From a virus, in IMG/VR virus record IMGVR_UViG_3300009080_000001, positions 1 to 64,000 of that record: 64,000 nucleotides of DNA, one strand, 5' to 3'. A program made the translations under genes and the position numbers. Below, piece after piece: positions 11,984-55,325 of the stretch (its first letter is position 1; every line of letters starts with the position of its first letter). The notes beneath the pieces were generated by a model that was given only the letters and a program-made list of their open reading frames with translations, was not told the origin of the DNA and made no database searches.

Positions 11984-12433
11984 GTGACGGATAAACATAA
12001 CAGCTCTTCTTTAAATATAGATCACATTAAGCAAGTGACAGATAAACATAATGACTTCCTTATAGACATCAGAATGACTAGTTTCTACTATCCGGGCTAC
12101 GCTGCGTTCCCAGAAAGCTACGATTACGACTATCAAGAAGAGTTTTCAAAGGTTATTGAGGATTTTGCACTATTCTTTAGGGCAGATATGATGTATCTAA
12201 TGAATGGGAGGTATGAAAGATTTATAGCCGAAAAAGTGGACGAGGACTTCACAGACCTTATGTTAGATCCTAATTTATATCACGACCATTTCATAATTGT
12301 TAAGCCAAATAGACTAGCATATAAATTATTTAAAAAAGATATTCTTTACGTTTACGAAGAGGATGACCACTTTTTAGTGGCTAGTAGTCCGAACGCACAA
12401 CGTAAATTCAGGAAGTTAAGAGGTATAAAATGA
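11984..12433 (+). CDS. Protein with divergent TRLARK box
   Basis: VKPNRLAYKLFKKD near C-terminus. Confidence 0.55.
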   Translation: MTDKHNSSSLNIDHIKQVTDKHNDFLIDIRMTSFYYPGYAAFPESYDYDYQEEFSKVIEDFALFFRADMMYLMNGRYERFIAEKVDEDFTDLMLDPNLYHDHFIIVKPNRLAYKLFKKDILYVYEEDDHFLVASSPNAQRKFRKLRGIK

Positions 12434-12720
12434 AAGCAATAAAAGAATTATTCCTAATCTGCGACATAGAATCTGATGATAATTCAGTAGGTTGGAGACG
12501 TAGAAGAGATGCTATGGAGCAATGGGTAGAGAGGTATTTGTCTACGGTAGAGACTCAGCAAAGTGTATTAAATCCTAATGTTTTCGAATCAGAATTTATG
12601 GATTTTATTAAAGAGTCTATAGCAAAAAAGTTGGCTGAGGACTTGACAACCTCCACCAAATATGAGATAACTGATAAGAAGATAAAAGCTAAACTGGTGG
12701 TGTTAAATGGCAACAAGTAA
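12430..12720 (+). CDS. Hypothetical protein
   Basis: Overlapping start/stop coupling. Confidence 0.6.
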   Translation: MKAIKELFLICDIESDDNSVGWRRRRDAMEQWVERYLSTVETQQSVLNPNVFESEFMDFIKESIAKKLAEDLTTSTKYEITDKKIKAKLVVLNGNK

Positions 12721-12997
12721 TAGATATCCAATAGTTAGGCGTAATAATCTCAACGTAATGATAATTAGAACAGAAGGAAATGGTGACAATTTGGACTTTA
12801 TAAGCTTTGTAGAAACTGACGATGGTATTAAATATGAAGATACAAGTGGTCATAGAATGCCTTTAAAGGATATAATTATAGAATCTAATAGCGGAACTTT
12901 TGGCCTAGAGAGCGTTGTTAAAACTAGACTAGCAGAAAAAATGTGCAAGGTACTAGGGGAAACTGAGAACTATTATATTATTAAGGGAGAGCAGTAG
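12707..12997 (+). CDS. TRLARK-box protein
   Basis: VVKTRLAEKMCK at C-terminus. Confidence 0.7.
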   Translation: MATSNRYPIVRRNNLNVMIIRTEGNGDNLDFISFVETDDGIKYEDTSGHRMPLKDIIIESNSGTFGLESVVKTRLAEKMCKVLGETENYYIIKGEQ

Positions 12998-13203
12998 TGG
13001 GAATGGGAACTATAAGAGTACCTAGAGATGAAGAAATACCTATATACAAAACGGTAAATGATACTAGGCTCGCTCGTAAAATGTTCCCGGATTTTACTGA
13101 TAATAAAGATGGAACCTTAAGAATAATAACTGGTTACGGACCGGAGCCTGTTATAGTAGGTTCAGAAAAGGGATTTACATATATAGGAACGCCAAAAAAA
13201 TGA
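12997..13203 (+). CDS. TRLARK-box protein with capsid-like peptide
   Basis: VNDTRLARKMFPD followed by EPVIVGSEKGFTYIG. Confidence 0.75.
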   Translation: MGMGTIRVPRDEEIPIYKTVNDTRLARKMFPDFTDNKDGTLRIITGYGPEPVIVGSEKGFTYIGTPKK

Positions 13204-13469
13204 GAATACCACCAAGAGCTAAGAAATCACAAGAGATTATAGACCAAATGGTTAACTGGTTGAACTATTATATGGGAACTAGGCCCGAATTTAAGGACTT
13301 TATCAGAAATGATATCAAATACTTAGAAGAATACCTATCAGAAATTAGTGAAGAGCATAAAGTTCACAATATTAGATTTGCTACTAAGTTAAAGAGTCTT
13401 TGGAAGTGGGAATTAGAGGAAAAAGAAAGAGAAATCAAGCAATTAAAGGCGGAATTGGATGAAAAATAA
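13200..13469 (+). CDS. Hypothetical protein
   Basis: Coupled ORF. Confidence 0.6.
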   Translation: MRIPPRAKKSQEIIDQMVNWLNYYMGTRPEFKDFIRNDIKYLEEYLSEISEEHKVHNIRFATKLKSLWKWELEEKEREIKQLKAELDEK

Positions 13470-13950
13470 GAAAATAGGTCAGGGATTAGGGACACAGATC
13501 GATGAAAGGTCAGGAAACGCTAGAGCTTTGGCTATGTCGCAACAATTACAGCAAATGGGAAACCTTTCTGGTCAGACACAATTAGATGTTCTTTACCAAA
13601 AAAGAATGGCTGAGTATGAGAAACAAAAAATGGAATATGAAAATCAAAAAAGACAACATGAGATGGTAAAAGAAGAAGCACTTAGTAGATTAGACGAAGT
13701 ACTAGAAAATTCTGGAATACCACTAAAAGGATCTGATTATTTTAACATATATACCGATATATTCACAGAGGTAGACGCTATAAGATGTTTTGGTAAGAAT
13801 TATAATCCTAAAGAGGTTTTTAATGAAGTATTTACAAAGTATATGAATAATAACTACGATGAAATAACAGATACTAGGCTGGCAAGAAAGATGTATCCAG
13901 ACGCTAGGCCTAATAAAGACGGTAAGTTATACGTGAAAAAGGAAAAATAG
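13459..13950 (+). CDS. TRLARK-box protein with portal-like peptide
   Basis: RSGNARALAMSQQLQ near N-terminus; ITDTRLARKMYPD at C-terminus. Confidence 0.75.
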   Translation: MKNKKIGQGLGTQIDERSGNARALAMSQQLQQMGNLSGQTQLDVLYQKRMAEYEKQKMEYENQKRQHEMVKEEALSRLDEVLENSGIPLKGSDYFNIYTDIFTEVDAIRCFGKNYNPKEVFNEVFTKYMNNNYDEITDTRLARKMYPDARPNKDGKLYVKKEK

Positions 13951-14235: not shown

Positions 14236-14248
14236 AAGGAGTTAAATA

Positions 14249-15055
14249 ATGATAAAAAGAGATATAAATATGTTAGAGTATCTATGTAAAGTTAGCCCAA
14301 AAGAATTTACAAGAAAAACGAGAGAAAGCGGGCCTATAAGAACATATTTCTACAGAAAATGGATATATTCTCCGATGGGAGGTTTCGAAACATGGGACAC
14401 AATGGCAGAAGTTAATCTAGAAAAATATAAAGTTACATACTATAACGGATGGGGGAAGAGGTAAATATGAAAAAATTTAAAGTATTATGGGAAGAGAGAG
14501 TTGAGAAATCTGTGTGGATTGAAGCCTCCTCTGAAAAAGATGCTGTAGAAAAACACAATGAAGGCGAATATAGTAATGACTCAGTAAATGAAGAGTGGTT
14601 AGGATTCGACGACTCTTACGTTGTAGATAGCAAGGATATAGAATAATGTTCGACTATATGGTAAAAGTACTGCCGAACGGTAACTTATTAGTGCGTGACA
14701 GCCATTCTAAGACATCCGAGGCTATTAAGGCAAGTGAGATATCGGATTATTTCCAAAAGGCTTTAAAAGAGCAATTAGAGGCTGAGAAAGAGAATGACCA
14801 GAAACATAAGGATGTTCGAGAGGGAGCCTTTAAATTATGAAAAGAATAGAAAAAATGATGACATACAGGAATGATCCGTATTCTAATAATATAATAGAAG
14901 ACGATTATCAGTTAGTAGGTATAGATTATATAGTCTCTGCTTGGAATTGGGACCACTCTAAATCAAACGACGAATATTACTGTGTAAAATTAGCTCATTT
15001 TGGAAGTATTGTCCACATAAAGAAGGAAGACCTAGATAAAAAGGTAAAAAAATGA
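14249..15055 (+). CDS. Four small hypothetical ORFs (14249-14464, 14467-14646, 14646-14840, 14837-15055)
   Basis: Tightly coupled ORFs with RBSs. Confidence 0.55.
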
Positions 15056-15381
15056 ATAAAACATATACAAGAATGCAAAAACAAGTAGTTAACGACACTA
15101 GGTTAGCTAGGAAGATGTATCCAGACTTCACTGATAATGAGGATGGTACTATCACAATTGAGGTTGAAGTAATCTCAGACGGATTCGGGTCTGGTGGTAT
15201 ATTGACTGCTACAGACGTACAAGATGCAATAAATGATATGCTGACCAAAGGCTTTGCTGCGCCATCAGAAATCATAGTAAACCCTAAACAATACGCAGAG
15301 TTACAGAAGTTAATAGATCCAGATGACATGGATATTAAGGTTAGTAACTACTGTCCTGATGACAAGGTATATATAAAATAG
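15052..15381 (+). CDS. TRLARK-box protein with capsid-like fragment
   Basis: N-terminal VNDTRLARKMYPD; IVNPKQYAELQKLID. Confidence 0.75.
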   Translation: MNKTYTRMQKQVVNDTRLARKMYPDFTDNEDGTITIEVEVISDGFGSGGILTATDVQDAINDMLTKGFAAPSEIIVNPKQYAELQKLIDPDDMDIKVSNYCPDDKVYIK

Positions 15382-15884
15382 GAGAATAAGTAGTGGGAAT
15401 AGCTGTAGGTATATTGTTAATAGTTAATATGTTTTGGATAATGCCGACATTATATAGAATTGAGAAGTTATTGGAGAGAAAATGAAAGGACATTACGAAG
15501 ACGATACTGACGCAAAGAGATTATTATTAACTATATTCTGTGTAGCCGCTATTTCAGGGCTATTAAGCGCATTTATTTATTAGGTGTATTATGATTGAAA
15601 ATGTTATTAAAAATATTTGGATTACAACTAGGATATTAGCTGGAGCCTTGACAATACTGGCGGCTATTAATCTATCAAATCAAGATATAATAGGAACATT
15701 ACCATTTATAAGTATTATTATATGTGGATTCTTTACAATAGCTAAACAACATGATTAGGTGTATTAACATAAATATACCCATATCTGTTTTCTGACACTA
15801 CTTTGACCAATACAACTGACTTAGAACCACATACCCCCCTACCCCCTAAATATATTTTGTTTACATAGAATATACGCACCTATC

Positions 15885-15996
15885 TTGGCATGGATCTTGC
15901 AGTAGCAATCGGAGTGCCACTCTCCACTGTAAATAATATTTATTGTATCGGCTATAAGACTTGGCACGGTACTTGCAGATGCATACCATATGCCAA
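15885..15996. promoter_or_regulatory. Four sigma54 (-24/-12)-like motifs in two convergent pairs
   Basis: TGGCAY-N5-WTGCW at +15886, -15919, +15962, -15995. Confidence 0.65.
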
Positions 15997-16444
15997 CACA
16001 TAGTGCCAACTATATATGGCAGCTCAGAATGCTCTGTGTCTGCGTTTGTGGGTATAGTGCTTATGATTGTATAGGTTAATTTCGGAGGCTTTACAGAGGC
16101 TATTCTGTACGTGTGAGGAGTCAAGGTTATTTATTAGATAGTAACATTGTTTATTAGCGAATTATTATATTGGTAATATGCGGATAGTTAGCGTATACTA
16201 GTATTAGGAAATGACACAACGTATTACGGGAGTTATATATGTTAATAGAGTGGATAGTCGGAGTATTATATGCAGTACTGAGTATGTTTGGTAAGGTTGT
16301 TTATATGATTGAAACGTATGTAAGTAGTGATAATTTAAAGTAATTTATTAATTCATCTAGTTATAGGAGGTGATAAACAGTATCTATTTAATATTTAATA
16401 CATCAAATACAAGTCTTAATTCTAAGCGGTCTAATTTAACCTAG

Positions 16445-16770
16445 TTATAAAGCCCCGATCATGGGGCGATCTACTTCAATAAGTTAATACATTTAAAAGG
16501 TTTGAAACAAGGCATTACTAAACTTTACTAGTATATAAGGACACTAGCCGAAAAGTAATGCTAAATAGATTATGTTTATGCCGATACGATAGTATCACTT
16601 TCTCTATTTGGCTTTTGCTGTAAAGCAATTTAGTTTAGAGGTTGAAGCGTTCCGCTTGAGTCTTTTAACAATCGTTTCTCAAGTACTCGTTATCTTAATC
16701 TGATGTGTTCCGAGCCTAGTCGTCATTCTTTTCGCAAAGCCGTGACATTTTTTAACGGTCTTCATTCTCT
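16445..16770 (-). ncRNA. Candidate late structured ncRNA
   Basis: Late motif upstream, many helices, terminator-like hairpin at 3' end, no substantial ORF. Confidence 0.5.
16447..16467 (-). terminator. Terminator-like hairpin
   Basis: GCCCC-ATGATC-GGGGC followed by TTTAT. Confidence 0.5.
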
Positions 16771-16774
16771 TATT

Positions 16775-16789
16775 ATATAGTTGTTAAAT
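16775..16789 (-). promoter_or_regulatory. Late promoter-like motif, copy 5
   Basis: Exact 15-mer with no convincing CDS downstream. Confidence 0.7.
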
Positions 16790-17170
16790 ATATTGTACGT
16801 ATCTTTTCCGTAACAGGTATTTATTTTCATTATTTCAATGATTACGGTTACTTAGTCTTATTAAAATAGCTACAATAAAATTACATGATGCCTGACTATA
16901 CTCTCCAGTTAGATACAGATATAATCCTAAACCTACATTAAGTAAAAATATTATATATTCAAATTTTTTCATAAATAAAAATTCCTTTATTAAATAGTCC
17001 CCAGAAGTCATCACAAATCGGGGGACTAAATAAGTTTAGTTGATGCGGTAGGCTTTACGCATCTTTGTCCAGTTGCCTACTCTAATAATATATCAAAATT
17101 ATAGGATTCAATCAAGAGCTAAATTAGCAAGTGTAAATATTACAATCGGTAAAAATTACATACTTTCATG

Positions 17171-17349
17171 AGGAATATACGCAACTGCCATAGATAGTTG
17201 GCTGTTCAGATTAGCTCAGGATTCATTTAAAAGTTTTTTGAAGGTGGTTATACACAGAACATTTAAAGAGCTTAGAAGCATGATTCTGTTACGATTAAGC
17301 CTATGAATAGTATTTATTTAGGGATTTTTTACAAGGAATATACGCAACT
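17171..17349 (+). repeat. 16-bp direct repeat AGGAATATACGCAACT (17171-17186, 17334-17349)
   Basis: Exact match; partial third copy near 15868. Confidence 0.7.
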
Positions 17350-17510
17350 AAAGAAAAATTAAGTTGACTAAATAAAATTAGTTGTTGTCAAGCTTTTTCT
17401 TGGGATTGTAAATATTACCTATCTAATTTTTAGATCATAGCTATCTAATTATTATATTTGTGTTTATGACACGATATGTTATTCTAGTATTAGAAAAGGA
17501 GTTAACAAAA

Positions 17511-27191: not shown

Positions 27192-27647
27192 ATGAAATAT
27201 AACAGCATGAAAAAACAAGCATTTAAAGATTGGAAACGAGGTACTAAAACTCCGCAATGGGCAAAGATAAATAAAAGGAAAAGAATATATGAACCAGAAT
27301 ATTACACAACCCTGAATAATTTACAGGGTACGTTGAATTTCCTTGACCATAAGTTTGATAAATGTAATTTAGAGAATCTTGGTAATTATATTTATGAGAT
27401 AAAAGATATTATAAAACCTAGACATATAGATAAAGAAGATTATTCAATGCAATATCAGATATATAATAGTGGTATATGGAATGTTTTTAGTAGTTACTAT
27501 AAGGACAAGACAGGTTACGGAGTACACTGGAAATTAGAGGAAGTTAACTATTCAAGATTAGCTGAGAAAATGTATAAGATAACAGAGAAAAATAAGTTAA
27601 AATGTTTAGGAGGAGTAAGGTGGTTAGTGTGGGTAAAAATTACATAG
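27192..27647 (+). CDS. TRLARK-box protein (divergent)
   Basis: VNYSRLAEKMYK; start revised by RBS. Confidence 0.6.
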   Translation: MKYNSMKKQAFKDWKRGTKTPQWAKINKRKRIYEPEYYTTLNNLQGTLNFLDHKFDKCNLENLGNYIYEIKDIIKPRHIDKEDYSMQYQIYNSGIWNVFSSYYKDKTGYGVHWKLEEVNYSRLAEKMYKITEKNKLKCLGGVRWLVWVKIT

Positions 27648-28985: not shown

Positions 28986-29321
28986 ATGGACGATATTAAA
29001 GTAGGAGATTATTTTAAAGACAGTAGTGGGTGTTATTTTGAAATAGCAGGGTATTTCAAAGATAGCGAGGATAAAAATATATACGTAATAAAGTTAGATG
29101 ATTATATTGAAGGGGTTCCTTTAAAAAGACTTATTTCAGACTACGGATTTAAAAAACAAATTAATGCTCTTAATTTAGACGATAAATATAGCTATCATTA
29201 TATGCCAAAACAATCAGATTGGACATTAGCATATGACAAAGTTAAAGATACAAGACTAGCAAGGAAAATGTGTAAGAAAATATACAAAGAAGAGGACGGT
29301 TGGTTATATGTCAAAATTTAA
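28986..29321 (+). CDS. TRLARK-box protein
   Basis: IKVGD...VKDTRLARKMCK..EDGWLYV. Confidence 0.75.
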   Translation: MDDIKVGDYFKDSSGCYFEIAGYFKDSEDKNIYVIKLDDYIEGVPLKRLISDYGFKKQINALNLDDKYSYHYMPKQSDWTLAYDKVKDTRLARKMCKKIYKEEDGWLYVKI

Positions 29322-29607
29322 AGTTGGTGATGTAGTTACTTTACGAAAAGATAGTAAATATTACAAACATAACGATTTGTATGCTCATATATGTGATAAA
29401 GGATCTGGTACTATACTCGAAATCTATGACGATTATACCACACACATTTATGGGATAAAATGGAATAGTATGCCAGAAGGTGAACATGGGTATACTGACT
29501 GTTCGTTAAGAGAAGTTGATATAGAAATAAAATATAAATATACAAGACTAGCAGAGAAAGTCTACCCAAAAGGATATAAAGATGGTAAATGGTGGGTGTT
29601 ATGTTAA
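29308..29607 (+). CDS. TRLARK-box protein
   Basis: FKVGD...YKYTRLAEKVYPKG. Confidence 0.75.
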   Translation: MSKFKVGDVVTLRKDSKYYKHNDLYAHICDKGSGTILEIYDDYTTHIYGIKWNSMPEGEHGYTDCSLREVDIEIKYKYTRLAEKVYPKGYKDGKWWVLC

Positions 29608-29876
29608 AAGTTGAGGATTTAAGAGTTGGTGATATATTAGTAAACTCCTCTATTAAATATAGGATAGAAAGTATATCTGAAAAAGGATTTGTGCTATATT
29701 CGTATAGATATTCAGCTAGTCTTGAAAATGAGATATCTGTAAGTCATATGGGAAGGACTATGAGAAACGGACACACTATATTACTATTTACAATAGTAAA
29801 TAACACTAAACTAGCCCGTAAACTATACCCAAAAGCAGAGGTACTTGAAAACGGTAAATTAAGGATTAGAGGATGA
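29601..29876 (+). CDS. TRLARK-box protein
   Basis: LRVGD...VNNTKLARKLYP. Confidence 0.75.
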   Translation: MLKVEDLRVGDILVNSSIKYRIESISEKGFVLYSYRYSASLENEISVSHMGRTMRNGHTILLFTIVNNTKLARKLYPKAEVLENGKLRIRG

Positions 29877-30688: not shown

Positions 30689-30930
30689 TGTTAAAAGTCG
30701 GAGATTATGTTTCTATTAAACAGGGTAAAAATCTAAAAGGCGATAAAGTTGGTGTATTTAGAAAAGTTACTGAATATATTGGTAAGTATGATTTATATAA
30801 AATAGAAGGTACTGAAGGTTATCCTTATTTTGAAGACGAGTTAGACGTTTATACTAGAGTTAAGAATACAAGACTTGCAAGGAAAATGTATCCAAAAGCA
30901 GTTGAAGAAAATGGTTGGTTGTATATATGA
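30688..30930 (+). CDS. TRLARK-box protein
   Basis: LKVGD...VKNTRLARKMYP. Confidence 0.75.
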   Translation: MLKVGDYVSIKQGKNLKGDKVGVFRKVTEYIGKYDLYKIEGTEGYPYFEDELDVYTRVKNTRLARKMYPKAVEENGWLYI

Positions 30931-31370: not shown

Positions 31371-31663
31371 AATTTAAAGTTGGTGATAAGGTTAAGTTTA
31401 AAGACAAACCGTATTTATTTAAAATACTAATGGAAGATACTTATGGATTTTTACTAGAGGATCTTGATGTTTCACCAGATTGTTGGAAGTTATCGAATAG
31501 TTCTGTATGGACACATGAACATAGTATAAAAGCAGGAACTATGATATATAATGAGTACGGACAATCCAGTGATCTAGAACTAGCAAAATACAAATATACA
31601 AGATTAGCAGAGAAGTTATTCCCGAAAGGACATAAAGAAGGTGATTGGTGGATATTAGATTAA
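31367..31663 (+). CDS. TRLARK-box protein
   Basis: FKVGD...YKYTRLAEKLFPKG. Confidence 0.75.
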   Translation: MKFKVGDKVKFKDKPYLFKILMEDTYGFLLEDLDVSPDCWKLSNSSVWTHEHSIKAGTMIYNEYGQSSDLELAKYKYTRLAEKLFPKGHKEGDWWILD

Positions 31664-31754: not shown

Positions 31755-32099
31755 TTGGAGAATAGTGTGGAAGAAGTAAGTAGATTTAAAGTTGGTGATA
31801 TTGTTATTGGTAACGAGGATAATCACTACGGTATTACGAATAGAGAGAATATATGTAAGGTTGTTGGGTTTATTTCAGAAAATGAATATCCTCCGATAAA
31901 TACACAAGGTACGGTTGAAGTCGGCGACGATATGTACGTTGAAGTTATTGAATCTAAAGATTTCGAATATGATGTTGGAAAAATATTTCCAGTAGATTCT
32001 AGTAGGTTCAAACATTGTAGAGTAGTTAACACAAGGTTAGCAAAGAAGTTATATCCAAAAGCTAATGAGTCAGAAGATGGGAAGTGGTTATATGTCTAA
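31755..32099 (+). CDS. TRLARK-box protein
   Basis: FKVGD...VNTRLAKKLYP. Confidence 0.75.
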   Translation: MENSVEEVSRFKVGDIVIGNEDNHYGITNRENICKVVGFISENEYPPINTQGTVEVGDDMYVEVIESKDFEYDVGKIFPVDSSRFKHCRVVNTRLAKKLYPKANESEDGKWLYV

Positions 32100-32457
32100 G
32101 TTTAAAGTTGGTGATATCGTTACTAGACATGGTTGGGTGTTAGAAATAGCATGTGTTTCAAATTGGGAAGATGCTAAATCTGATGCTAAAGATTGGTATG
32201 TAGCTAGAATTTTAAGTGGTAATGCTAGTTTAGGAAATGTTATTGCTGAAGAATTTGAAGGGTACTTTAGAGATAATATCAATATTGAAAGTATAATGGA
32301 ATCGTTGAATAAATATCCTGTTGGTGTTAAATTCAATTGGGGATTTGAACATTCTTTTGAATCAGTAGAGCCAATTAAAAAAACAAGATTAGCATTGAAA
32401 GTGATACCAAAAGAAGATATATTAAAAGAAACTGAGGAATGGTTATGGGTAAAATAA
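32092..32457 (+). CDS. TRLARK-box protein
   Basis: FKVGD...KKTRLALKVIP. Confidence 0.7.
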   Translation: MSKFKVGDIVTRHGWVLEIACVSNWEDAKSDAKDWYVARILSGNASLGNVIAEEFEGYFRDNINIESIMESLNKYPVGVKFNWGFEHSFESVEPIKKTRLALKVIPKEDILKETEEWLWVK

Positions 32458-33458: not shown

Positions 33459-33757
33459 GTAGAGTTTCAGACATTAGTGCGATAACTGAAGGATGTAAAA
33501 TTAAATGGAAAGGTAAACCCTTTACTGATTTGATCTACACAATAGAGAAGGTTAATCATAAAACTGGAATTGTTTTTATAAGTTGGATAAGTGAAAGAGG
33601 TTATGACTTTGTTGATAAATACAATCTAAAGGACGCAATAGAAAGCGGTCCTATATATTTAGTAACAATAGACGTAAAAGATACAAGATTAGCAAGAAAG
33701 TTATACCCAAATGCAGAAGTATTAGATAACGGAATGTTACGGATAAAGGAGAAATAA
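33455..33757 (+). CDS. TRLARK-box protein
   Basis: VKDTRLARKLYPNA. Confidence 0.75.
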   Translation: MSRVSDISAITEGCKIKWKGKPFTDLIYTIEKVNHKTGIVFISWISERGYDFVDKYNLKDAIESGPIYLVTIDVKDTRLARKLYPNAEVLDNGMLRIKEK

Positions 33758-36704: not shown

Positions 36705-36959
36705 ATGAAAAAGTATATGTATGTTGGATATGAATACGAAGGTGACTGGGCAACAAAAGAGTCGGCGTTTGGAGGTGTCTATTACGGAGAGCCTTGGCAC
36801 GATAAGTTAAATCTATTTTATTATCCTAGCGGAGAGTACTTTGTAACAGTTGAATTAAACGAGGTTGTTGAAGAAACTAAACCAACGAGATTAGCAAGAA
36901 AGATGTTTCCAAATGCTATTAATCATTTTGGTAGTATGTTTATATTGGAGGGTAGGTGA
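36705..36959 (+). CDS. TRLARK-box protein
   Basis: KPTRLARKMFP. Confidence 0.75.
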   Translation: MKKYMYVGYEYEGDWATKESAFGGVYYGEPWHDKLNLFYYPSGEYFVTVELNEVVEETKPTRLARKMFPNAINHFGSMFILEGR

Positions 36960-37450
36960 TAAAACTTTACACACAATTTGGAGAATTAATAGTTTGTAAT
37001 AAAGCTGAGTTTTTAGGAATGGTTCCACATGAGACTGTTGGTCCGAAAGTTGACTTACCATATATTACAGGACTTAATGAAGAAATTGGAAGTTTCAATA
37101 TGATTAATAAAAAATTAGATATTAATAGTAATTTACAGTTCTTTTCTAATAAACATTTTCCGAAAAAGAGAATGATGGACGTTGTTATGGAACTTGGAAC
37201 TAATTATATGTTCCCAGAAACATTACATTGTGTTATTGTAGGTAAGAATTTCTATTTATATAGTGATCCAGTAGTATATGAGTTTGCAGGAAAATATCAG
37301 GTTATTTCTAAAAAATACCAAGACGTTTATAGTTGCAGTATTGAACATTCTGGGATTATGGATAAGATACAGAGATTTAAAGCTACTAGATTAGCAAAAA
37401 AGATGTTTCCAGATGTTTTAGAAGTTGACGGGTGGTTGTATTCATGTTAG
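36956..37450 (+). CDS. TRLARK-box protein
   Basis: KATRLAKKMFPD..DGWL. Confidence 0.75.
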   Translation: MIKLYTQFGELIVCNKAEFLGMVPHETVGPKVDLPYITGLNEEIGSFNMINKKLDINSNLQFFSNKHFPKKRMMDVVMELGTNYMFPETLHCVIVGKNFYLYSDPVVYEFAGKYQVISKKYQDVYSCSIEHSGIMDKIQRFKATRLAKKMFPDVLEVDGWLYSC

Positions 37451-37468: not shown

Positions 37469-37723
37469 ATGGAATTTAAAGTTGGAGATTTAGTTAGATG
37501 TGTAGATGTTTCAGGATCAATACCTTTGCCACTGAAATTACATAATATTTATACAATAGAGGGCGAAGAATTCGGTAAATATATACGAGTAGTTGGAGTA
37601 AATAGATGGTTTACAAACGGAAGGTTTAAAAAACTGGAGAAAGTAAATAACACACGACTAGCTAGAAAAATGTATCCAAAAGCAGAGGTTGACGAAGACG
37701 GTATGTTGGTTATAGAATGTTAG
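37469..37723 (+). CDS. TRLARK-box protein
   Basis: FKVGD...VNNTRLARKMYP. Confidence 0.75.
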   Translation: MEFKVGDLVRCVDVSGSIPLPLKLHNIYTIEGEEFGKYIRVVGVNRWFTNGRFKKLEKVNNTRLARKMYPKAEVDEDGMLVIEC

Positions 37724-40654: not shown

Positions 40655-40898
40655 AGTTGGGTGGAAATATGCTATTGAAGTAATTAGTGATAATTATACG
40701 TTTACCGTCACTAATTATGACGAAGTAGAAGGAAGAGTCTTCGGGATAGATGGATGCGGTATTGAAGACATTTGGAGCGTATCTACATTTCAAAAATACG
40801 CTACTCCTCTATATATAGAAGTTAAAGCAACAAGATTAGCACGTAAAATGTTCCCGAATGCTGAAGAAGAAAACGGAATGTTGATACTGGAGGAATAA
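40644..40898 (+). CDS. TRLARK-box protein
   Basis: VKATRLARKMFP. Confidence 0.75.
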   Translation: MEIKVGWKYAIEVISDNYTFTVTNYDEVEGRVFGIDGCGIEDIWSVSTFQKYATPLYIEVKATRLARKMFPNAEEENGMLILEE

Positions 40899-41307: not shown

Positions 41308-41580
41308 ATGGTGAGTGAAAGTTGGGTTGGCAGGAAAGTAAGGTTTAAGAATTGGCCAGAGTGTATGTATTGGTATATAGAAAAGGAAGATTCTGGTAAT
41401 TATATCGGAACTGTATTTGCTCATAATAAAGTACAGGAAACTGAATTCAATATTACCAAGAGGTTTACACATAAACGATATTTTTTAATTGACACAAAAG
41501 TAAAGGACACCAGACTTGCACGTAAAATGTATCCAGATTTTAAGGAAACTGAAGATGGTTATTTATTAATAATGAGGTAA
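41308..41580 (+). CDS. TRLARK-box protein
   Basis: VKDTRLARKMYPDF. Confidence 0.75.
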   Translation: MVSESWVGRKVRFKNWPECMYWYIEKEDSGNYIGTVFAHNKVQETEFNITKRFTHKRYFLIDTKVKDTRLARKMYPDFKETEDGYLLIMR

Positions 41581-41582: not shown

Positions 41583-43955
41583 GTGAAAGAACGTAAACTA
41601 GTAATAGTTGATAATATAAAGAAATTAGCAGAAGCTATAACACATATAAATACTTACGATATATTAGCATACGATATAGAAACTACTGGACTTATTCCTA
41701 CTAAGGAAAAGGTTATAGGGTTCTCAGTATGCGGTAAAGTAGGTGAAGCATATTATATTCCACATTTAACTTGGGATACTACCAAAAATAAACTAGTCGA
41801 AGTATTCAGCTTCAGTAAAATATCCTCCATTTTAAATTCGTTAAAAGGTAAAGAGTTACTGATGTGGAACGGTAGTTTCGACGTTAGATTCACCAGAGAT
41901 TATTTCGATATAGACCTTACAGAAGAATTATTCGCAGATATTATGTTAATGAAACATACAGTAGAAGAAGAGGGTCAATTTAGCTTAAAAGGCTGTGCAA
42001 TCCAGTACCAAGAAGAGATTGGACTAGATGTAGCAGAAGACGCTAACAAAGAGCAGATAGCCTTAAAAGAGAACGTAGCTAAGAATGGCGGTACAACTAC
42101 TAGAGCTAAGTACGAGATGTATAAGGCTGATCTAGACGTTATGGGTGTGTATGCCGCAGCCGATGCAGACCTTACATTAAGACTTGCAAACCTATTCAGA
42201 GAAAAGCTTGAAAAAGAGGAATTAGAGGACTTCTTTTATGATGAAGAAGTTATGCCTTTATATAAGTATGTAACAATGACAATGGAATCTAATCCAGTAC
42301 AATTAGATATTGATAAACTTAAATACTACAAACATAAGATAGAGCAAGATATAGTTAAATTACATGATGCTATTGTTGCAGACTTATTAACAAGCGTTAA
42401 AGTACAAGCATGGTTAGAAGAAGTAGCTAAGACTAAATATCCGCCAAAACCTACTGGAAACTACGCTCAAAGAGTGGTAGAGAAATTCGGACTAGATTTA
42501 CCAAAATCAGCATCAGGGAAGTACAGTATTTCCAGAAAGAATGTTGAGAAATTACCAGATAGTGACGCTAAAAGCTTCTTATTAAAAGAGAGTAATATAG
42601 AGCCGGAATTTAAGGTAAAAGATACAAGGTTAGCACGTAAGATGTATCCGGGCTGTGTAGAGAAAGATGGTTGGTTAGTACCTGCTCAAGATATGTCAAG
42701 TATTTCAGTTGAATTATGGGAAGAACATAATGGTGGTAAAATCAATATCTCATCTAAAAAGCAAATGGGTGAAATAGTATTTAATTACATGAAAGTTAAG
42801 CCTTTAACTAAGACCTTAAAAGGTGCGCCACAATTTAACGATGCTTTAATTCAATATTTAGCTGATAATCAGTTTTCTTGGGCTAATGACCTTAGTGACT
42901 ACAATAAGCTAATTAAGATCAAGTCAGCATATATCGATAGATTCTTGGATAATAACCAAGATGGTAATTATTACTTTTATTACAAACAACATGGAACATT
43001 ATCAGGACGATATAGTTCTGACGCACAGCAGCTACCAAGACCTAAAGAAGATGGAGAACTATCACCATTAGTACTTGAATATAACAATGCTATTAGGTCG
43101 TTCTTTGTCGCTGGTGAAGGTCGTAAGTTTATTGATGCCGATTATGAGTCGTTAGAGCCACATGTATTTGCACATGTATCAGGTGATGATGGGTTGAGAA
43201 ATATCTTCCGTAAAGGTCATGATTTTTATAGTACTATTGCTATTCAAACAGAGAAGCTTGGGGAATTTAGTGCGGATAAGAAGTCCGAAAGTTACCTTGG
43301 GAAATTAAACAAACCATTACGCCAGAAGGCTAAGGCTTATAGTCTAGGCGTTCCATATGGCATGACACCTTATGCCCTAGCTAAGACATTAGAAGTGGAT
43401 GAGAAGGAAGCTAAGAAGCTATATGATGGGTATTTAGACGGGTTTCCAGAGCTTAAGAAGTGGATGCAGAAGAGTAAGAGAGATGCACAGTACAAAGGAT
43501 TCGTTAAGACGCAAACTGGACGTATTAGGCACTTAGATAGGGTTAAAGAGCTACATGCTGAACATGGTGAGAAATTACTTAATTTTAAATACCGTAAAAA
43601 GCTTGAAAAACAAGTAGCTAAGAAACTTGGTGGATTTGAAGCATCTAAAGAAGTTAAAGGTATGTACCTTGATTATAAGAATGGTATAAATAATAGCCGC
43701 AACTTTCAGATTCAAGGATTATCGGCTAGTATTGTAAATAAATCCATGATACTGATTATGCAGGATTTTAGGGACGAGAATATAGACGGTTACGTATGTG
43801 CAACAGTACATGATCAGATTATTGTTAACGTATCTGATTTAGATCTTGACAGAGCTATAGAAATAGTGCAATATAGAATGACAACGGTTGTTGAGCTATC
43901 AGTTGATCTGAAAGCTCCGCCAGAAATTAGCGATAATTTTAGAGATGGACATTAA
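41583..43955 (+). CDS. polA: DNA polymerase family A with 3'-5' exonuclease and internal TRLARK box
   Basis: DIETTG exo I; SGRYSS; DADYESLE motif A; KAKAYSLGVPYG motif B; HDQ motif C. Confidence 0.95.
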   Translation: MKERKLVIVDNIKKLAEAITHINTYDILAYDIETTGLIPTKEKVIGFSVCGKVGEAYYIPHLTWDTTKNKLVEVFSFSKISSILNSLKGKELLMWNGSFDVRFTRDYFDIDLTEELFADIMLMKHTVEEEGQFSLKGCAIQYQEEIGLDVAEDANKEQIALKENVAKNGGTTTRAKYEMYKADLDVMGVYAAADADLTLRLANLFREKLEKEELEDFFYDEEVMPLYKYVTMTMESNPVQLDIDKLKYYKHKIEQDIVKLHDAIVADLLTSVKVQAWLEEVAKTKYPPKPTGNYAQRVVEKFGLDLPKSASGKYSISRKNVEKLPDSDAKSFLLKESNIEPEFKVKDTRLARKMYPGCVEKDGWLVPAQDMSSISVELWEEHNGGKINISSKKQMGEIVFNYMKVKPLTKTLKGAPQFNDALIQYLADNQFSWANDLSDYNKLIKIKSAYIDRFLDNNQDGNYYFYYKQHGTLSGRYSSDAQQLPRPKEDGELSPLVLEYNNAIRSFFVAGEGRKFIDADYESLEPHVFAHVSGDDGLRNIFRKGHDFYSTIAIQTEKLGEFSADKKSESYLGKLNKPLRQKAKAYSLGVPYGMTPYALAKTLEVDEKEAKKLYDGYLDGFPELKKWMQKSKRDAQYKGFVKTQTGRIRHLDRVKELHAEHGEKLLNFKYRKKLEKQVAKKLGGFEASKEVKGMYLDYKNGINNSRNFQIQGLSASIVNKSMILIMQDFRDENIDGYVCATVHDQIIVNVSDLDLDRAIEIVQYRMTTVVELSVDLKAPPEISDNFRDGH

Positions 43956-43956
43956 T

Positions 43957-45550: not shown

Positions 45551-45849
45551 AGAAAGCGATGTGGATAAGTTATTCGTCCGATGAACATGAACCTAATTTT
45601 CCTTTTAATATTAATGATGTAATTAATGTTGAAGAGGATTTTGAAGCAGGATGGGCTAATGGTCTATGGGAGATTCTTGACGATGAAGGATTTAGTATTA
45701 GCTACGAGTATTCCGGAGAACTTCTAAACCAGTGTTACTTATATAAAGAACAATTACTTTTCGGAGTAAAATCAACACGACTAGCAAAGAAACTATATCC
45801 AAATGCTCCAGAAAAAGAGGGTATGTTATGGATCAAAGACGATGAGTAA
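45547..45849 (+). CDS. TRLARK-box protein
   Basis: VKSTRLAKKLYP. Confidence 0.75.
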   Translation: MKKAMWISYSSDEHEPNFPFNINDVINVEEDFEAGWANGLWEILDDEGFSISYEYSGELLNQCYLYKEQLLFGVKSTRLAKKLYPNAPEKEGMLWIKDDE

Positions 45850-46153
45850 ACCAGTATATTTCAAACTAGGTTCAACTGGTAAGATTTACCAAGCAGATAT
45901 CTGTAGAGATTACACAGTTGGCGTAGATTGGTCAGCTATGATCCAAGTAGTAGAATTTGACGACATATCTCAAGTACATCAAGACATATTTTCACATACA
46001 TATTTCAACAGAAATTACGCTAATGTTCGAGCAAGTTTATATCTTATATTAAAAGGTGACTTACTGTACGAATCTATCAAAGATACTAGATTAGCACGTA
46101 AGATGTATCCAGATGCTATCGAACATGAAGGTTGGTTGTTAATTGAAAGTTAG
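45842..46153 (+). CDS. TRLARK-box protein
   Basis: IKDTRLARKMYPD. Confidence 0.75.
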   Translation: MSKPVYFKLGSTGKIYQADICRDYTVGVDWSAMIQVVEFDDISQVHQDIFSHTYFNRNYANVRASLYLILKGDLLYESIKDTRLARKMYPDAIEHEGWLLIES

Positions 46154-47345: not shown

Positions 47346-47629
47346 TGTCAGGTATAGATCACCTATACGCTAGAATTAAGAATAGGCTCGTTGAATTTGA
47401 CTTCGAGCCTACTTCAAAAAGAGCAGATGGTATATTCTATACTATAATGTGGGAATTTTCATATTCAATGAATAATATTTCTAACGATGTTATTGACAGC
47501 TATATAAAAGATGTATATAATTTTGACAGGTATAGAAATACCAGACTAGCACAAAAGATGTTTAAAAACGATATTATTAAGAAAACAGATAAATGGATAT
47601 ATGTGAGAGATTATGGTAACAAAAAATAG
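47345..47629 (+). CDS. TRLARK-box protein
   Basis: YRNTRLAQKMFK. Confidence 0.7.
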   Translation: MSGIDHLYARIKNRLVEFDFEPTSKRADGIFYTIMWEFSYSMNNISNDVIDSYIKDVYNFDRYRNTRLAQKMFKNDIIKKTDKWIYVRDYGNKK

Positions 47630-48870: not shown

Positions 48871-49111
48871 TATTAATATAGGAGACAATTTTTATGGTAA
48901 ATACGGTAGAATACTCATAACGAATATAGTACATAGAGGTTGTGAAACGATTATAACATACAAGTACGATGATGGTGATGATGTACAAGGAAGATGTTTT
49001 CTACCTAGATTCCAAAATATGTTTAAAAGACAAGTAAAAAATACAAGATTAGCAAAGAAGATGTTCCCAAATGCTGAGGAATCTGAAGATGGAGAATGGT
49101 TATATGTATAA
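48860..49111 (+). CDS. TRLARK-box protein
   Basis: INIGD...VKNTRLAKKMFP. Confidence 0.75.
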   Translation: MVININIGDNFYGKYGRILITNIVHRGCETIITYKYDDGDDVQGRCFLPRFQNMFKRQVKNTRLAKKMFPNAEESEDGEWLYV

Positions 49112-49485: not shown

Positions 49486-49824
49486 ATGATGGAGGAGAAA
49501 TTGAGTAAGTTAATATTAGGAGGAAGGTATGTCTTTAATGTAAAAAAGCGTTGCACTTTAGTTGGTTTTGATGATGATGGTGATATTTTAGTACTTTTCG
49601 ATGACGTTAACTATAATACTCCTTTTGGTACTACAACATATAGCGAGTCTGTAGGTAGCTGGGATAATCTTATTGAATTTAAAGGAGATGCGGTTGGGTA
49701 TTCAGAATGTCCATTAATGTTAGAACCGTTAGAAATTAAAGTAAATGACACAAGATTAGCACGTAAATTATATCCAAATGCTAGATTACAAGCAGACGGT
49801 ATGTTATTAATAGAGGTGAAATAA
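49486..49824 (+). CDS. TRLARK-box protein
   Basis: VNDTRLARKLYP. Confidence 0.75.
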   Translation: MMEEKLSKLILGGRYVFNVKKRCTLVGFDDDGDILVLFDDVNYNTPFGTTTYSESVGSWDNLIEFKGDAVGYSECPLMLEPLEIKVNDTRLARKLYPNARLQADGMLLIEVK

Positions 49825-50037: not shown

Positions 50038-50718
50038 ATGAGTAAATATAAATGTAAATACGGACTATATCACGATAAACCAGTAGTACAGAATCAGCCT
50101 AGTAGTAATAATGGTTGGATTTATACTGCATATTCTAAGTATTTAGCTCCCGGAAATATAGACTCAACTAGAGTTAGATTAACATTTCAAAGCTGTAGAA
50201 AGAGTTATACTCCTTTAATTATAAATAGACTACCTAATAAGCCAAAACCTCCGCTTTCTAAAGATGAGGTTATTGGACAAGTATCTCTAGGTTTACTACA
50301 TAATGAGGAACTTGAAAGAAGTCACTATAATTTCTGTAATATTGATAAGAGTTTTGACAGGAAGTTATCATTTAAAAGTCTGATAAAAGCTATCAAAGTA
50401 CTATATAAAGCTAAAGATGAACATAGAAATTACATCTGGGAAAATGAGGTTGTGGAAGCTTATCCATTAGCATTCAGATTACCACCTGAAGACATTTATT
50501 ACGTTAAAGAGTATAGTGGTGTGAGAGCCTCTATTTTCGAGTCTGTAGCGTTCTATTTAAACGCAGCCATGACTATACATAATGGAGATAAAAGCTCCAG
50601 AATGCTGTTATTCCTTAAATTAGAGGATATGAATCATTGGTTGAAGAGGTTTGTTGATAAAGATAAATGGGTTAGAGATTATTTCGAAGAGAATCACGAT
50701 TTTGTGAAGAATCTGTGA
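50038..50718 (+). CDS. Hypothetical protein
   Basis: Start revised by RBS. Confidence 0.6.
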   Translation: MSKYKCKYGLYHDKPVVQNQPSSNNGWIYTAYSKYLAPGNIDSTRVRLTFQSCRKSYTPLIINRLPNKPKPPLSKDEVIGQVSLGLLHNEELERSHYNFCNIDKSFDRKLSFKSLIKAIKVLYKAKDEHRNYIWENEVVEAYPLAFRLPPEDIYYVKEYSGVRASIFESVAFYLNAAMTIHNGDKSSRMLLFLKLEDMNHWLKRFVDKDKWVRDYFEENHDFVKNL

Positions 50719-51053
50719 AAGGTTATATAAAGATAAAAGTACCAATGTATCGACAGAAAGGACTAGTTCCTGATATGTGGACATGTACTTATTATGAGAA
50801 ATTCCCGTACATTTATATGTCAGAAGACTTAACTCACTATTTAAGTAAATGGTTAGAAATTAAAGGTGTTAGATGTTCAGTAGGTGGTATGGTACATAGA
50901 GGATTTAGAACTCACTATATTATAGATAGAGATAAGATGATAACTAGAGTACGTGATACTAGATTAGCTAGGAAGGTATTAAAAGAGGACGAGATACTTA
51001 AAATTAAAGATGGTTGGATATATATGTTTAATGAGGAGGTTAGACTTGGCTAA
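50715..51053 (+). CDS. TRLARK-box protein
   Basis: VRDTRLARKVLK..DGWIY. Confidence 0.75.
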   Translation: MKGYIKIKVPMYRQKGLVPDMWTCTYYEKFPYIYMSEDLTHYLSKWLEIKGVRCSVGGMVHRGFRTHYIIDRDKMITRVRDTRLARKVLKEDEILKIKDGWIYMFNEEVRLG

Positions 51054-52792: not shown

Positions 52793-53018
52793 TGGATACT
52801 ACGTTATTAATATATTGTGTTATATCATTCATAGGTACAGTGTTGCACGGTTTTTATACTGAATATTTTAAATATGATAAAGCAACTTTAACTATTTTAG
52901 AAATTATACAGATATTTGTTTGTGGTTTTATGGGGCCTGTAATTTTTCCGATTATGTTATTTTTTTGGATAATAAATAGGGACTTTTGGAATAAAGAAGT
53001 ATTCAAAAAAGGTGAAGA

Positions 53019-53243
53019 ATGATCGGTTGGAAAAACGTAAAAGATACAAGATTAGCTAGAAAGATGTTCCCTGACTTTAAAGAGTCCGAAAAAGACGGGT
53101 ATATTATGATCCCAGAACCTATAGATTTAACTAATACTACGTTTGCTGAAAGAGCACATATAGCTGAACAATTGTTACAATACGGACTTATTACTACAAA
53201 AGAAGAATATTTAAAAATAATTGATAATATCCAACAAAAGTAG
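53019..53243 (+). CDS. TRLARK-box protein with portal-like fragment
   Basis: N-terminal VKDTRLARKMFPDF; AERAHIAEQLLQYGLI. Confidence 0.75.
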   Translation: MIGWKNVKDTRLARKMFPDFKESEKDGYIMIPEPIDLTNTTFAERAHIAEQLLQYGLITTKEEYLKIIDNIQQK

Positions 53244-53299
53244 TTGACAGGGTTTTCTAAATAGATTATATTTAAGACTAATCTATTAAAGGAGAATTA

Positions 53300-54064
53300 A
53301 TGAAGAAACTACTTTTAGCAATTATGCTACTACCAACACTGGCATTCGCCAATCTAAACACAATCAAACTTACTGATAAAAACACTATCAGTTTCAACGA
53401 ACAATTCAATGCAATGACTGTTGCAGCAAAACAAGCACAATTATTCGAATTAGCATCTAGTTCACAAGAAAAGGACTTATATATAGTTATGTATACTCCC
53501 GGTGGCTCAGTATCTGCTGGAGCTTTATTTATCGATACAGCAAGAGCATTAGGTAAGAACATTCACACAATCACTATTTTCAGCGCATCTATGGGCTACC
53601 ACACCGTTCAAGGACTTGGCAAGAGGTATATTCTACCATCTGGGGTTCTAATGTCTCACAGAGCTTATGTAAGCGGATTACAGGGTCAATTTCCGGGTGA
53701 ACTAAATCAAAGAGTTGAGATGCTTATGAAGTCTACTGAAGACCTTGATAAGATTGCTGCTGCTAGAGTTGGTTTAAGTCTTAAGGAATACAAATCTACT
53801 ATTCACGATGAACTATGGTTAACTGGTGCTGATGCTGTTAAAAGAGGTCATGCTGATGAAGTTGTACAAGCTATCTGTGGAGAAAGTCTAAGTGGATTAT
53901 ACGAGAAAGTATTTAACACATTCTTTGGACCAGTTATTGTTGAATTTGCTAATTGTCCATTAATTGTAGGACCAGTTAATATCAAAGGATCAAACGAAGC
54001 AATTATGGAAGTTAAAAAGAACATCCTAGACGATGTAACTAAAAAGGTTAAAACACTACTATAA
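53300..54064 (+). CDS. ClpP-like protease with signal peptide
   Basis: MKKLLLAIMLLPTLAFA; TPGGSV, SASMG, LMSH; TTGACA at 53245. Confidence 0.8.
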   Translation: MKKLLLAIMLLPTLAFANLNTIKLTDKNTISFNEQFNAMTVAAKQAQLFELASSSQEKDLYIVMYTPGGSVSAGALFIDTARALGKNIHTITIFSASMGYHTVQGLGKRYILPSGVLMSHRAYVSGLQGQFPGELNQRVEMLMKSTEDLDKIAAARVGLSLKEYKSTIHDELWLTGADAVKRGHADEVVQAICGESLSGLYEKVFNTFFGPVIVEFANCPLIVGPVNIKGSNEAIMEVKKNILDDVTKKVKTLL

Positions 54065-55048
54065 TGGCTGATTTAGACGAATTACTAGAATTATTAGAAA
54101 AGAAAGTACAGGAGAAGGAGGCTGAAAAGTCTCCTAAACCTGAACAAAAAGAGTCCACTAGAAGGTTCATAGAGAAATCTAATATCCGAAAAGGACTAGA
54201 CAGAGTACCAAATTATGTTATATTCTTTACATACATGAAGAAGTACCGAGCAAGAGTTGGAGAAGAGAAATGGTCAAAAGTACATTTCTTTAGGTTATTT
54301 AACAGACAATTCGATCAAGCTAGAGTTGGTAAACAAAGATACTACGTACTAGATGGAAGCTCATTTGATCTAACAAGGGAAGGAAGAATTGAAGCGAAAG
54401 CATACGACAAAGAATACAGGCGACAAGTCGGCATCAAAACAGGCAAAATCAAGCTTAGAAAGCGACGTAAAGCCGTTAAAAACGAAGAGGGATAGTCACC
54501 AATACCCTAACCTTAAGAAGTCGTTAAACACGAAACTAAGGCGTGATTACTTGGATAACCTGTACTATGTAGATGGTGTTAAAAACAAGAAAGATGGTGA
54601 AGATGTAATACGCCCTTTAAATGACTCTGAAAAAGAGTGGCTTAATAAGTTTAATGGTGAATACTACGGAGCAAGTTTTGATAAGAACGATGATAATAAT
54701 CTACACAGTAATCGTGCCGATGATGTTACTATATATAATGTTAGGCAAGACATAAGTAGAATTAGAAAGGAAGCTGCGGCAGCATCTAAAGAAGATGACT
54801 CGGAATTAGCTAAAGAGCTGTATTTAGAATTAGAAGAGCAACTAGAGTACTTAAGAGACATCTACCCGAAAAAGAAGTGTCAGGATGATAATAACTCTAG
54901 GAATAGATGTTTATTGAATACTGGTAAAGCTACTAATGAGGTTAAATTTATACCTTGGGAAACAATGGATCAAAATATCTTAGGTGATATGGATATAGAA
55001 TTACTATATATTTTAAATGATATGATTGCGGAGGAAGAAGGTGAGTAA
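54064..55048 (+). CDS. Two hypothetical proteins (54064-54495; about 54389-55048)
   Basis: Long ORFs; start of the second is uncertain. Confidence 0.55.
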
Positions 55049-55325
55049 ATTTAAGGTTGGAGACAAGGTTTTGGTTGTTGGGTCTGATAGTTTAACTAGA
55101 TATTACTTAAATTTTGGTTTGTTTGATAGAACAGGGTTAGTTGGAGTAGTAAAATTCGTTCGCAATCGAGAACGTAATATGTACTTAATACAGTTTAACG
55201 ATGAAATAGATGGTATGAAGTTTGCAGAAAGTGAACTGGAGTTTGCAAGATATAAATATACTAGACTTGCTGAGAAGATGTTCCCAAAAGGTCACAGAGA
55301 AGGTGATTGGTGGGTATTAGAGTAA
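55041..55325 (+). CDS. TRLARK-box protein
   Basis: FKVGD...YKYTRLAEKMFPKG. Confidence 0.75.
   Translation: MSKFKVGDKVLVVGSDSLTRYYLNFGLFDRTGLVGVVKFVRNRERNMYLIQFNDEIDGMKFAESELEFARYKYTRLAEKMFPKGHREGDWWVLE

Follow-up and report, generated by a model that had tools for sequence, protein, structure and literature searches.

A recurrent 28-residue peptide in a phage genome, its presence inside a family A DNA polymerase and its possible role as a docking module

What does a short peptide do that recurs in 28 proteins of a single phage, one of them its DNA polymerase? This question is raised by IMG/VR record IMGVR_UViG_3300009080_000001, a complete virus record of 84,758 bp with direct terminal repeats, of which bases 1–64,000 (G+C ~33%) constitute the window analysed here. 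An earlier note, made by a model from the letters of the window, described a 'TRLARK box' in 28 open reading frames (ORFs), judged it to be portable and likened its carriers to adaptor families such as the F-box and SOCS-box proteins. The existence of the box, its portability and its position inside the family A DNA polymerase (PolA) are observations. The reading of its function that we favour, tentatively and with slightly less than even confidence, is that of a portable docking knob, which either binds a shared partner or allows one handle to pair with another and is probably linked to the replisome; that the box binds anything, and which partner it binds, we infer.

Recurrence, selection and distribution of the box

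The six-frame translation was searched with a regular expression and a hidden Markov model (HMM). Exact TRLA[RK]K sites number 19 in the three plus frames and zero in the minus frames, and a profile built from these 19 sites retrieves 28 copies (21 with independent E-values of 2.4e-6 or lower, seven weaker), all of which are on the plus strand between positions 12,278 and 55,322. A profile search of the complete genome found no box on the minus strand or in the remaining 64–84.7 kb. In 100 second-order Markov shuffles there were no strict matches and a mean of 0.66 loose ones, against 19 and 29 observed. The profile recovers exactly the ORFs listed by the earlier note and agrees with it that the minus-strand virion genes are free of the box; several of the ORF starts given there lie 15–63 nucleotides (nt) from the first in-frame start codon (27192 against 27129; 40644 against 40614), which is inconsequential here.

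The box is carried by 28 of the ~101 plus-strand genes. It is C-terminal in 22–23 of them, N-terminal in three (12997, 15052 and 53019) and internal in PolA, which is close to the distribution first described (mostly C-terminal, three N-terminal or central, one internal). The two weakest copies lie 17–30 residues before the protein end, and the residues that trail the box vary both in number (0–7 and more) and in identity. In a relative (P0122) it stands in the middle of a capsid-like fragment, so that, together with the terminal copies and the one in the PolA thumb loop, the term 'portable' is well chosen.

Judged from its coding sequence, the box is a peptide-level module under purifying selection rather than a DNA repeat. 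The invariant Lys is encoded by AAA and AAG in 14 copies each, Leu by five codons, Thr by four and Arg by AGA, AGG, CGA and CGT, and the third codon positions carry little information. Where copies share an amino acid they share its codon at a frequency of 0.50, compared with 0.42 expected from codon usage, and the conservation of all codon positions that marks a DNA repeat or mobile element was not found. When 29 ortholog pairs from syntenic metagenomic contigs were pooled in a Nei-Gojobori analysis, the ratio of nonsynonymous to synonymous substitution rates (dN/dS) was 0.13 for the box and 0.34 for the rest, with dS ~1.0 in both and dN 2.5-fold lower inside the box than outside; orthologs are 79% identical across the box and 57% identical over the remainder of the carriers. 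Both the codon spectrum, in which synonymous sites are near random, and the difference in dN/dS at equal dS uphold the claim that selection acts on the peptide while codons vary freely.

These data bear directly on a proposal in which the conserved element is the nucleic acid itself, serving as a recombination site or as a translation signal for the next gene, and the peptide is only a by-product. All copies do share one orientation, and the earliest start codon that the following ORF could use falls, in 18 of the 23 carriers with a C-terminal box, between 46 nt before and 3 nt after the carrier stop, so that several downstream genes may begin within the last codons of the box. Nevertheless, the near-random synonymous sites, the equality of dS inside and outside the box, the N-terminal and internal copies with no gene start downstream and the lack of a match in Rfam leave this proposal with next to no credibility.

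Beyond this genome, a profile search of 1.84 billion representatives returned 210 clusters (50% identity) at E <= 1e-3, ~180 of which are from elsewhere. Nearly all of these are proteins of 80–120 residues with a C-terminal box, and syntenic metagenomic contigs hold one to five boxes each. Among cultured phages (INPHARED), megablast with 8 kb gave no match and tblastn with a carrier gave no box. In IMG/VR, a DNA pattern for TRLARKMYP had no occurrence, a profile-derived pattern had 11, none of which was confirmed, and PolA relatives of 46–51% identity were without the box. It is also absent from two complete or near-complete sister genomes, G001 (78.8 kb) and G003 (79 kb), whose PolA is ~50% identical, and an analogous repeated motif was not found there either, any reduced-alphabet 6-mer occurring in at most five ORFs compared with 20 here. 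The PolA box and the carriers co-occur, both being missing from G001, G003, other relatives and Flavobacterium phage immuto, the closest cultured relative (PolA 45% identical). On this sampling, the box is restricted to one lineage. Pfam (E <= 1) and PHROGs scans of 10 carriers yielded no family for the box, its profile matched nothing among PDB sequences at E <= 10, and a full-text literature search for TRLARK found no description, in keeping with the original statement that this is not a named family.

Predicted fold and the copy in the DNA polymerase

AlphaFold2 models were obtained for the 84-residue carrier 37469–37723 (74-sequence alignment, mean predicted local distance difference test score, pLDDT, 82) and for the whole of PolA (112 sequences, pLDDT 93). 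The carrier is modelled as a small barrel of residues 1–60 (strands 8–13, 24–33, 36–42, 46–48 and 52–60), with the box as strand 52–60, helix 63–68 and strand 79–83 at pLDDT 90–97. In the PolA model the box comprises strand 345–346, helix 349–354 and strands 359–361 and 364–366, at pLDDT 71–83, and its predicted secondary structure follows the same order in the two contexts. The ~28 residues would thus form a short strand, an amphipathic helix of two turns (T-R-L-A-R/K-K-M/L-Y/F, with Pro at its end), an acidic loop that terminates in D/E/N-G and a return strand (W/M/Y-L-x-I/V); there is a single helix and no duplicated segment. The return strand is predicted to pair with the first, which would bring both ends of the box next to each other. 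Helical periodicity, rather than model coordinates, suggests that L, A, M and Y/F of the helix face the strands and that the invariant pair of Arg and Lys (i, i+4) is directed outward. These two residues are invariant in 27–28 of the 28 copies, and the position between them varies (R, K, E, Q, L or Y). The mean net charge of the box is approximately +2, and that of the non-box parts of the carriers is -2, ranging down to -14.

Within PolA the box belongs to an insertion in the thumb. In an alignment with the Klenow fragment, PolA has ~115 extra residues that separate helix H from the FNLSSTKQ motif, and in the model helix H (243–268) is followed by the insertion (269–371), with the box at its end, and then by helix H1. 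The ~100-residue thumb insertion is also found in box-less relatives and the box makes up only its last ~25 residues; relative to immuto PolA it represents an in-frame gain of ~15 residues together with the replacement of ~10. Among the 120 nearest PolA homologs it is present above ~56–60% identity and absent below ~55%, and in the deepest box-bearing orthologs only hydrophobic residues (L), K, YP and DG-aromatic-L remain.

In T7 gp5, the thioredoxin-binding domain is located at this same position of the thumb. As in T7, the insertion here lies between thumb helices H and H1, just before the FN(L/P)SS motif. The T7 insertion docks thioredoxin and, through a basic patch, the acidic tail of the helicase (PMC5997990). 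The acidic tail of the T7 SSB docks there as well. The primase-helicase of the present phage (38251–40173, plus strand) has the C-terminus ...DADDDDGY, an acidic tail that ends in an aromatic residue, as does that of T7 gp4. The two domains differ in that they have no sequence similarity and that the one of T7 is not known to recur in further T7 proteins. In G003, both the helicase homolog and PolA are ~320–380 residues longer, the extra length probably representing inteins.

The copy at the tip of the PolA thumb, together with another on a DNA glycosylase of a relative (see below), makes the replication machinery or replicating DNA the most likely site of action. It also invites the idea that the box touches DNA or RNA directly with its exposed Arg/Lys face, raising polymerase processivity and holding other proteins on DNA. 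The positive mean charge of the box and the likeness of its partner domains to KOW/Tudor/SH3-like barrels would fit such a role; set against this, the box has no more than two invariant basic residues, next to a loop that is strongly acidic, and the non-box parts are on average acidic as well, which makes direct binding of nucleic acid rather improbable.

Carrier proteins and their surroundings

An HMM derived from the SH3/KOW-like carriers without their boxes matched 12 carriers and no box-less protein of the genome, and every SH3-like protein that the genome encodes has the box; many carriers start with (M)xFKVGD. In a VIA wide search the barrel part reached Z 5–6.3, a range that the tool rates as a common arrangement, with a root-mean-square deviation of ~2 Å over 47–58 residues to uL24, the NusG KOW domain and the UvrD Tudor domain; only KOW/Tudor/uL24-type barrels were returned and nothing specific to the box. 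Foldseek found no PDB structure similar to the carrier model at E <= 1e-3, and its ESM Atlas neighbours are all small unnamed phage proteins that match carrier residues 1–58. The predicted likeness to KOW/Tudor/SH3-like barrels (uL24, NusG KOW, UvrD/PcrA Tudor, T4 Y07B-like phage proteins) concerns the variable N-terminal part of about half of the carriers and lies in the partner domain, not in the box. Each sister phage possesses a single barrel of this kind, which lacks the box and is extended differently at its C-terminus. The description of the carriers as 'otherwise unrelated' consequently fails for at least 12 paralogous proteins with a predicted barrel and holds for the rest, which resemble neither the barrels nor each other; as about half of the carriers are paralogs of one family, copy number partly reflects gene-family expansion rather than independent tagging.

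Box proteins of relatives add further contexts. In P0015 (L019:649-1311) the box ends a full pyrimidine-dimer DNA glycosylase (Pyr_excise), in P0117 it is preceded by an N-terminal aminotransferase fragment (class I/II), and P0018, of 50 residues, is nearly a stand-alone box. A Pfam scan of 10 longer box proteins from relatives found only the aminotransferase fragment of P0117. The carriers are lineage-specific insertions between core genes that are common with box-less G001, and apart from the box few plus-strand genes evolve as fast, their variable parts having a median ortholog identity of 50% compared with 79% in non-carrier neighbours (p = 3e-7). With respect to pattern only, a fast-evolving variable part joined to a conserved box is what adaptor families display, as had been suggested at the outset.

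The barrel family supports a structural explanation, according to which the box is a hallmark of that family, a stabilising cap or mini-domain that has occasionally been copied by recombination and has no common partner. At least 12 carriers are paralogs, and the first strand of the box continues the last barrel strand in the confidently modelled part of the carrier. In addition, helix and loop are oppositely charged and could be linked by salt bridges within the box, what deeper PolA orthologs preserve is limited to hydrophobic residues, Lys, YP and DG-aromatic-L, and the Erf-like annealing protein of the phage could drive recombination between copies of the same orientation. This explanation does not account for boxes without a barrel (the three N-terminal copies, the PolA loop, the capsid-like fragment, the glycosylase and the near-stand-alone protein), for the near-invariance of the outward Arg and Lys beside a variable position, or for sister SH3-like homologs that lack the box, and we regard it as unlikely.

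Four carriers contain pieces of the portal or of a 421-residue protein of the same phage (ORF 2519–3784), which is called capsid-like on the basis of its position and size only. The portal segment of carrier 53019 has an E-value of 5e-6 against the G001 portal and matches the portals of two sister phages; that of carrier 13459 (portal residues 423–442) is 60% identical in three portals. Carrier 12997 and its relative P0122 consist of an N-terminal capsid-like fragment (residues ~10–62) with the box in its middle, and the similarity of carrier 15052 to the capsid-like protein has an E-value of 0.03. These pieces may serve as decoys, assembly regulators or adaptors. A derivation of the box itself from the capsid N-arm was considered and dropped (hhalign of the box against the N-terminus of the capsid-like protein, probability 0.3%).

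Such fragments could indicate that the box is a cargo signal directing proteins into the procapsid, portal or capsid. Many small, fast-evolving and lineage-specific proteins that share one constant peptide resemble the polymorphic internal proteins of T4, and ClpP-family enzymes are the usual prohead proteases. We nonetheless consider virion targeting improbable: every copy is on the replication/early strand and none is in the virion modules, the capsid-like N-arm is dissimilar, and we know of no precedent for the packaging of a DNA polymerase and a repair glycosylase.

The fragments, if dominant negative, would need to be removed before assembly, which is one argument for a degradation or processing tag recognised by the two ClpP-like proteins or by a MoxR AAA+/VWA-metallopeptidase pair. 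The ClpP-family genes (48298–48870 and 53300–54064) are both on the replication strand and each adjoins a carrier. Near a DUF2201 VWA/putative metallopeptidase the phage encodes a MoxR-like AAA+ ATPase whose C-terminal tail is strongly acidic (25607–28976, plus strand); the weak-box ORF 27129–27647 sits between the two genes, and the pair is missing from G001 and G003. The box is also mostly C-terminal. These points are countered by the variable terminal residues, the N-terminal and internal copies and the failure to find, among the genes of the phage, an unfoldase with a known ClpP link. A pure degradation tag, one of the options of the earlier note, is hard to reconcile with the retention of the box in an essential polymerase over a long divergence (to ~56–60% PolA identity) and with the ClpP-like genes of box-less G001. 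We accordingly give this reading little credence; the ClpP-like genes, both of which G001 has, were dropped as box-specific partners, and the MoxR/VWA-peptidase pair is the remaining candidate for a protease partner. G001 also keeps the two ORFs downstream of the second ClpP-like gene (54064–54495 and 54389–55048). Beyond the portal, no gene of the virion module was recognised as coding for a protease.

Table 1. Copies of the box in the window and the proteins that carry them
Copy	Position	Strand	Carrier and remarks
Box, weakest (NRLAYK)	12278..12376	+	ORF 11984-12433, 30 residues from C-terminus; HMM independent E 0.19, E 0.009 with profile A1
Box (TRLAEKMCK), C-terminal	12893..12991	+	ORF 12707-12997; E 5e-11
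Box, N-terminal half	13033..13131	+	68-residue ORF 12997-13203; then N-terminal segment of capsid-like ORF 2519-3784
Box, C-terminal	13843..13941	+	ORF 13459-13950 (coiled coil and 20-residue portal-like segment)
Box, N-terminal	15067..15165	+	ORF 15052-15381; then segment like capsid-like protein residues 263-315
Box, weak (SRLAEKMYK)	27522..27620	+	ORF 27129-27647; E 6e-5
Box, C-terminal	29220..29318	+	SH3/KOW-like carrier 28986-29321
Box, YKYTRLAEK subtype	29512..29604	+	SH3/KOW-like carrier 29308-29607
Box (TKLARK)	29775..29873	+	SH3/KOW-like carrier 29589-29876
Box, top-scoring copy	30838..30927	+	SH3/KOW-like carrier 30688-30930; E 4e-19
Box, YKYTRLAEK subtype	31568..31660	+	SH3/KOW-like carrier 31367-31663
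Box	32001..32096	+	SH3/KOW-like carrier 31755-32099
Box (TRLALK)	32353..32454	+	SH3/KOW-like carrier 32065-32457
Box, C-terminal	33653..33751	+	ORF 33455-33757
Box, C-terminal	36855..36950	+	ORF 36705-36959
Box, C-terminal	37355..37447	+	164-residue ORF 36956-37450, non-SH3 partner domain
Box	37622..37720	+	SH3/KOW-like carrier 37469-37723, modelled by AlphaFold2, box pLDDT 90-97
Box	40800..40895	+	SH3/KOW-like carrier 40614-40898
Box	41479..41577	+	Carrier 41308-41580; stop 3 nt upstream of PolA start
Box, internal	42594..42689	+	DNA polymerase A 41583-43955, residues ~343-368, thumb insertion between helices H and H1
Box	45745..45840	+	Carrier 45547-45849
Box	46055..46150	+	116-residue carrier 45803-46153, non-SH3 partner domain
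Box (TRLAQK)	47510..47611	+	Carrier 47345-47629
Box	49013..49108	+	SH3/KOW-like carrier 48860-49111, right after ClpP-like gene 48298-48870
Box	49720..49818	+	Carrier 49486-49824
Box, longer loop	50928..51032	+	Carrier 50715-51053
Box, N-terminal	53016..53117	+	74-residue ORF 53019-53243; then portal-derived segment (portal residues 507-535)
Box, YKYTRLAEK subtype	55230..55322	+	SH3/KOW-like carrier 55026-55325, last plus-strand gene

The carriers are embedded in the ~101 genes that occupy 11.5–55.4 kb of the plus strand. Virion and packaging genes, including those for the terminase (8115–9587) and the portal (5425–7533), are on the minus strand at both genome ends. Besides PolA and the primase-helicase, the plus strand encodes an RNase H-like exonuclease, a PD-(D/E)XK nuclease, the Erf-like annealing protein, endonuclease VII-like proteins, a dCMP deaminase, an amidase, the two ClpP-family proteins, the MoxR-like ATPase, the VWA/metallopeptidase and an HSP90-like ATPase. 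The last of these is a 633-residue protein (23657–25558, plus strand) with an HSP90/GyrB/MORC-type ATPase domain, whose G001 homolog is 32% identical. Endonuclease VII/HNH-like genes between terminase and portal (7526–8056, minus strand) and directly after PolA (43945–44511, plus strand) probably encode mobile or packaging-associated nucleases. A 1.3-kb AT-rich stretch (15860–17350, ~29% G+C) without any ORF of at least 60 codons is a candidate origin or regulatory region; GGAATATACGCA[AC]CT occurs in it three times, alongside several inverted repeats. No tRNA was found in the phage. Its DNA is present in several marine metagenomes, with no RNA data set among the sequencing runs listed for it, and the nearest cultured relative, a Flavobacterium phage, points to a bacterial host.

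Docking and comparison with known modular systems

If the box is a docking knob, as we tentatively favour, the handle would tie a quarter of the plus-strand (early/replication) proteins to one partner or to each other. The proteins so tied would be the fast-evolving SH3/KOW-like binders, unrelated small proteins, the capsid-like and portal pieces, PolA and, in relatives, a glycosylase. Candidates for the hub are the acidic-tailed primase-helicase and the single-stranded-DNA-binding protein (SSB) of the host. A Pfam scan of the phage found no SSB family; the first plus-strand gene (11712–11915) encodes a 67-residue protein with the C-terminus ...GGDFDPFDDEG, which is similar to an SSB-type acidic tail.

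Several observations weigh against docking. The pLDDT values and the layout of basic helix and acidic loop could mean that the box is a self-stabilised mini-fold that needs no partner. The number of independent acquisitions is smaller than 28, since at least 12 of the copies stem from the expansion of one SH3/KOW-like-plus-box family. It is also hard to fit the capsid-like and portal fragments of four carriers into a replisome. Furthermore, deeper PolA orthologs (P0155, P0159–P0162) have not kept the Arg and Thr that are invariant in the small carriers, so the polymerase copy may be structural in the thumb, and the helicase of box-less G003 is also acidic and aromatic-ended (...EDDSSF), so the acidic tail is not specific to box-bearing phages.

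A more elaborate form of the docking model, possible though doubtful, envisages a phage-encoded modular adaptor system in which interchangeable baits are joined to a constant 28-residue handle that plugs them into one machine, which also holds PolA. The small barrels, the portal and capsid-like pieces and, in one relative, the aminotransferase fragment would serve as baits, brought together through a hub or through pairing of handles.

No paper or database family that describes the box was found, and although it would work like PRANC/F-box modules, dockerins or the T4 capsid targeting sequence, it has the defining sequence or position of none of them. In poxviruses, a constant module docks all PRANC/F-box-like ankyrin proteins onto one machine (PMC3185573, PMC4353913). 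Like PRANC, F-box and SOCS-box modules, the box is short, constant, usually C-terminal and borne by many paralogous viral proteins with a variable, fast-evolving part; it differs in its predicted strand-helix-hairpin of 28 residues, compared with the helical F-box, and in its additional occurrence inside a polymerase. F-box, PRANC and SOCS-box matches were not found in the Pfam scan of 10 carriers (E <= 1) or among PDB sequences (E <= 10). SCF ligases are not known from bacteria.

The capsid targeting sequence of T4 is an unfolded N-terminal peptide of ~10 residues that directs polymorphic internal proteins and is removed by the prohead protease. It too places one short peptide on several small, lineage-variable phage proteins with a common destination; by comparison, the box has 28 residues that are predicted to fold, is mostly C-terminal and occurs on ~28 proteins, replication enzymes among them. 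Dockerins are duplicated Ca-binding modules of ~70 residues at the ends of dozens of secreted cellulosomal enzymes and bind one type of receptor. The box resembles them as a portable end module on dozens of otherwise different proteins of one organism; it differs in having a single helix and no Pfam match, and a cohesin-like repeated receptor was not among the features identified here. An ssrA-like C-terminal degron is likewise a poor match, given the varying end residues, the three N-terminal copies and the internal one.

Small early genes of phages are mostly orphans that offer little to take hold of experimentally. The sharing of one module between 28 orphan early genes and a DNA polymerase means that a single pull-down with the module could place all of them in one pathway. 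The copy in the PolA thumb offers a direct test of how a family A replisome that is not of the T7 type holds together, and the box-tagged capsid-like and portal fragments present a separate puzzle to which the same pull-down is applicable. Should the box prove to be a docking handle, it would provide a small, insertion-tolerant tag of 28 residues for engineering. It would also mean that phages build adaptor families as eukaryotic viruses and cells do. The more elaborate adaptor system, if real, would constitute a bacterial-virus counterpart of the F-box/PRANC adaptors and a new route to repertoires for host takeover or anti-defence.

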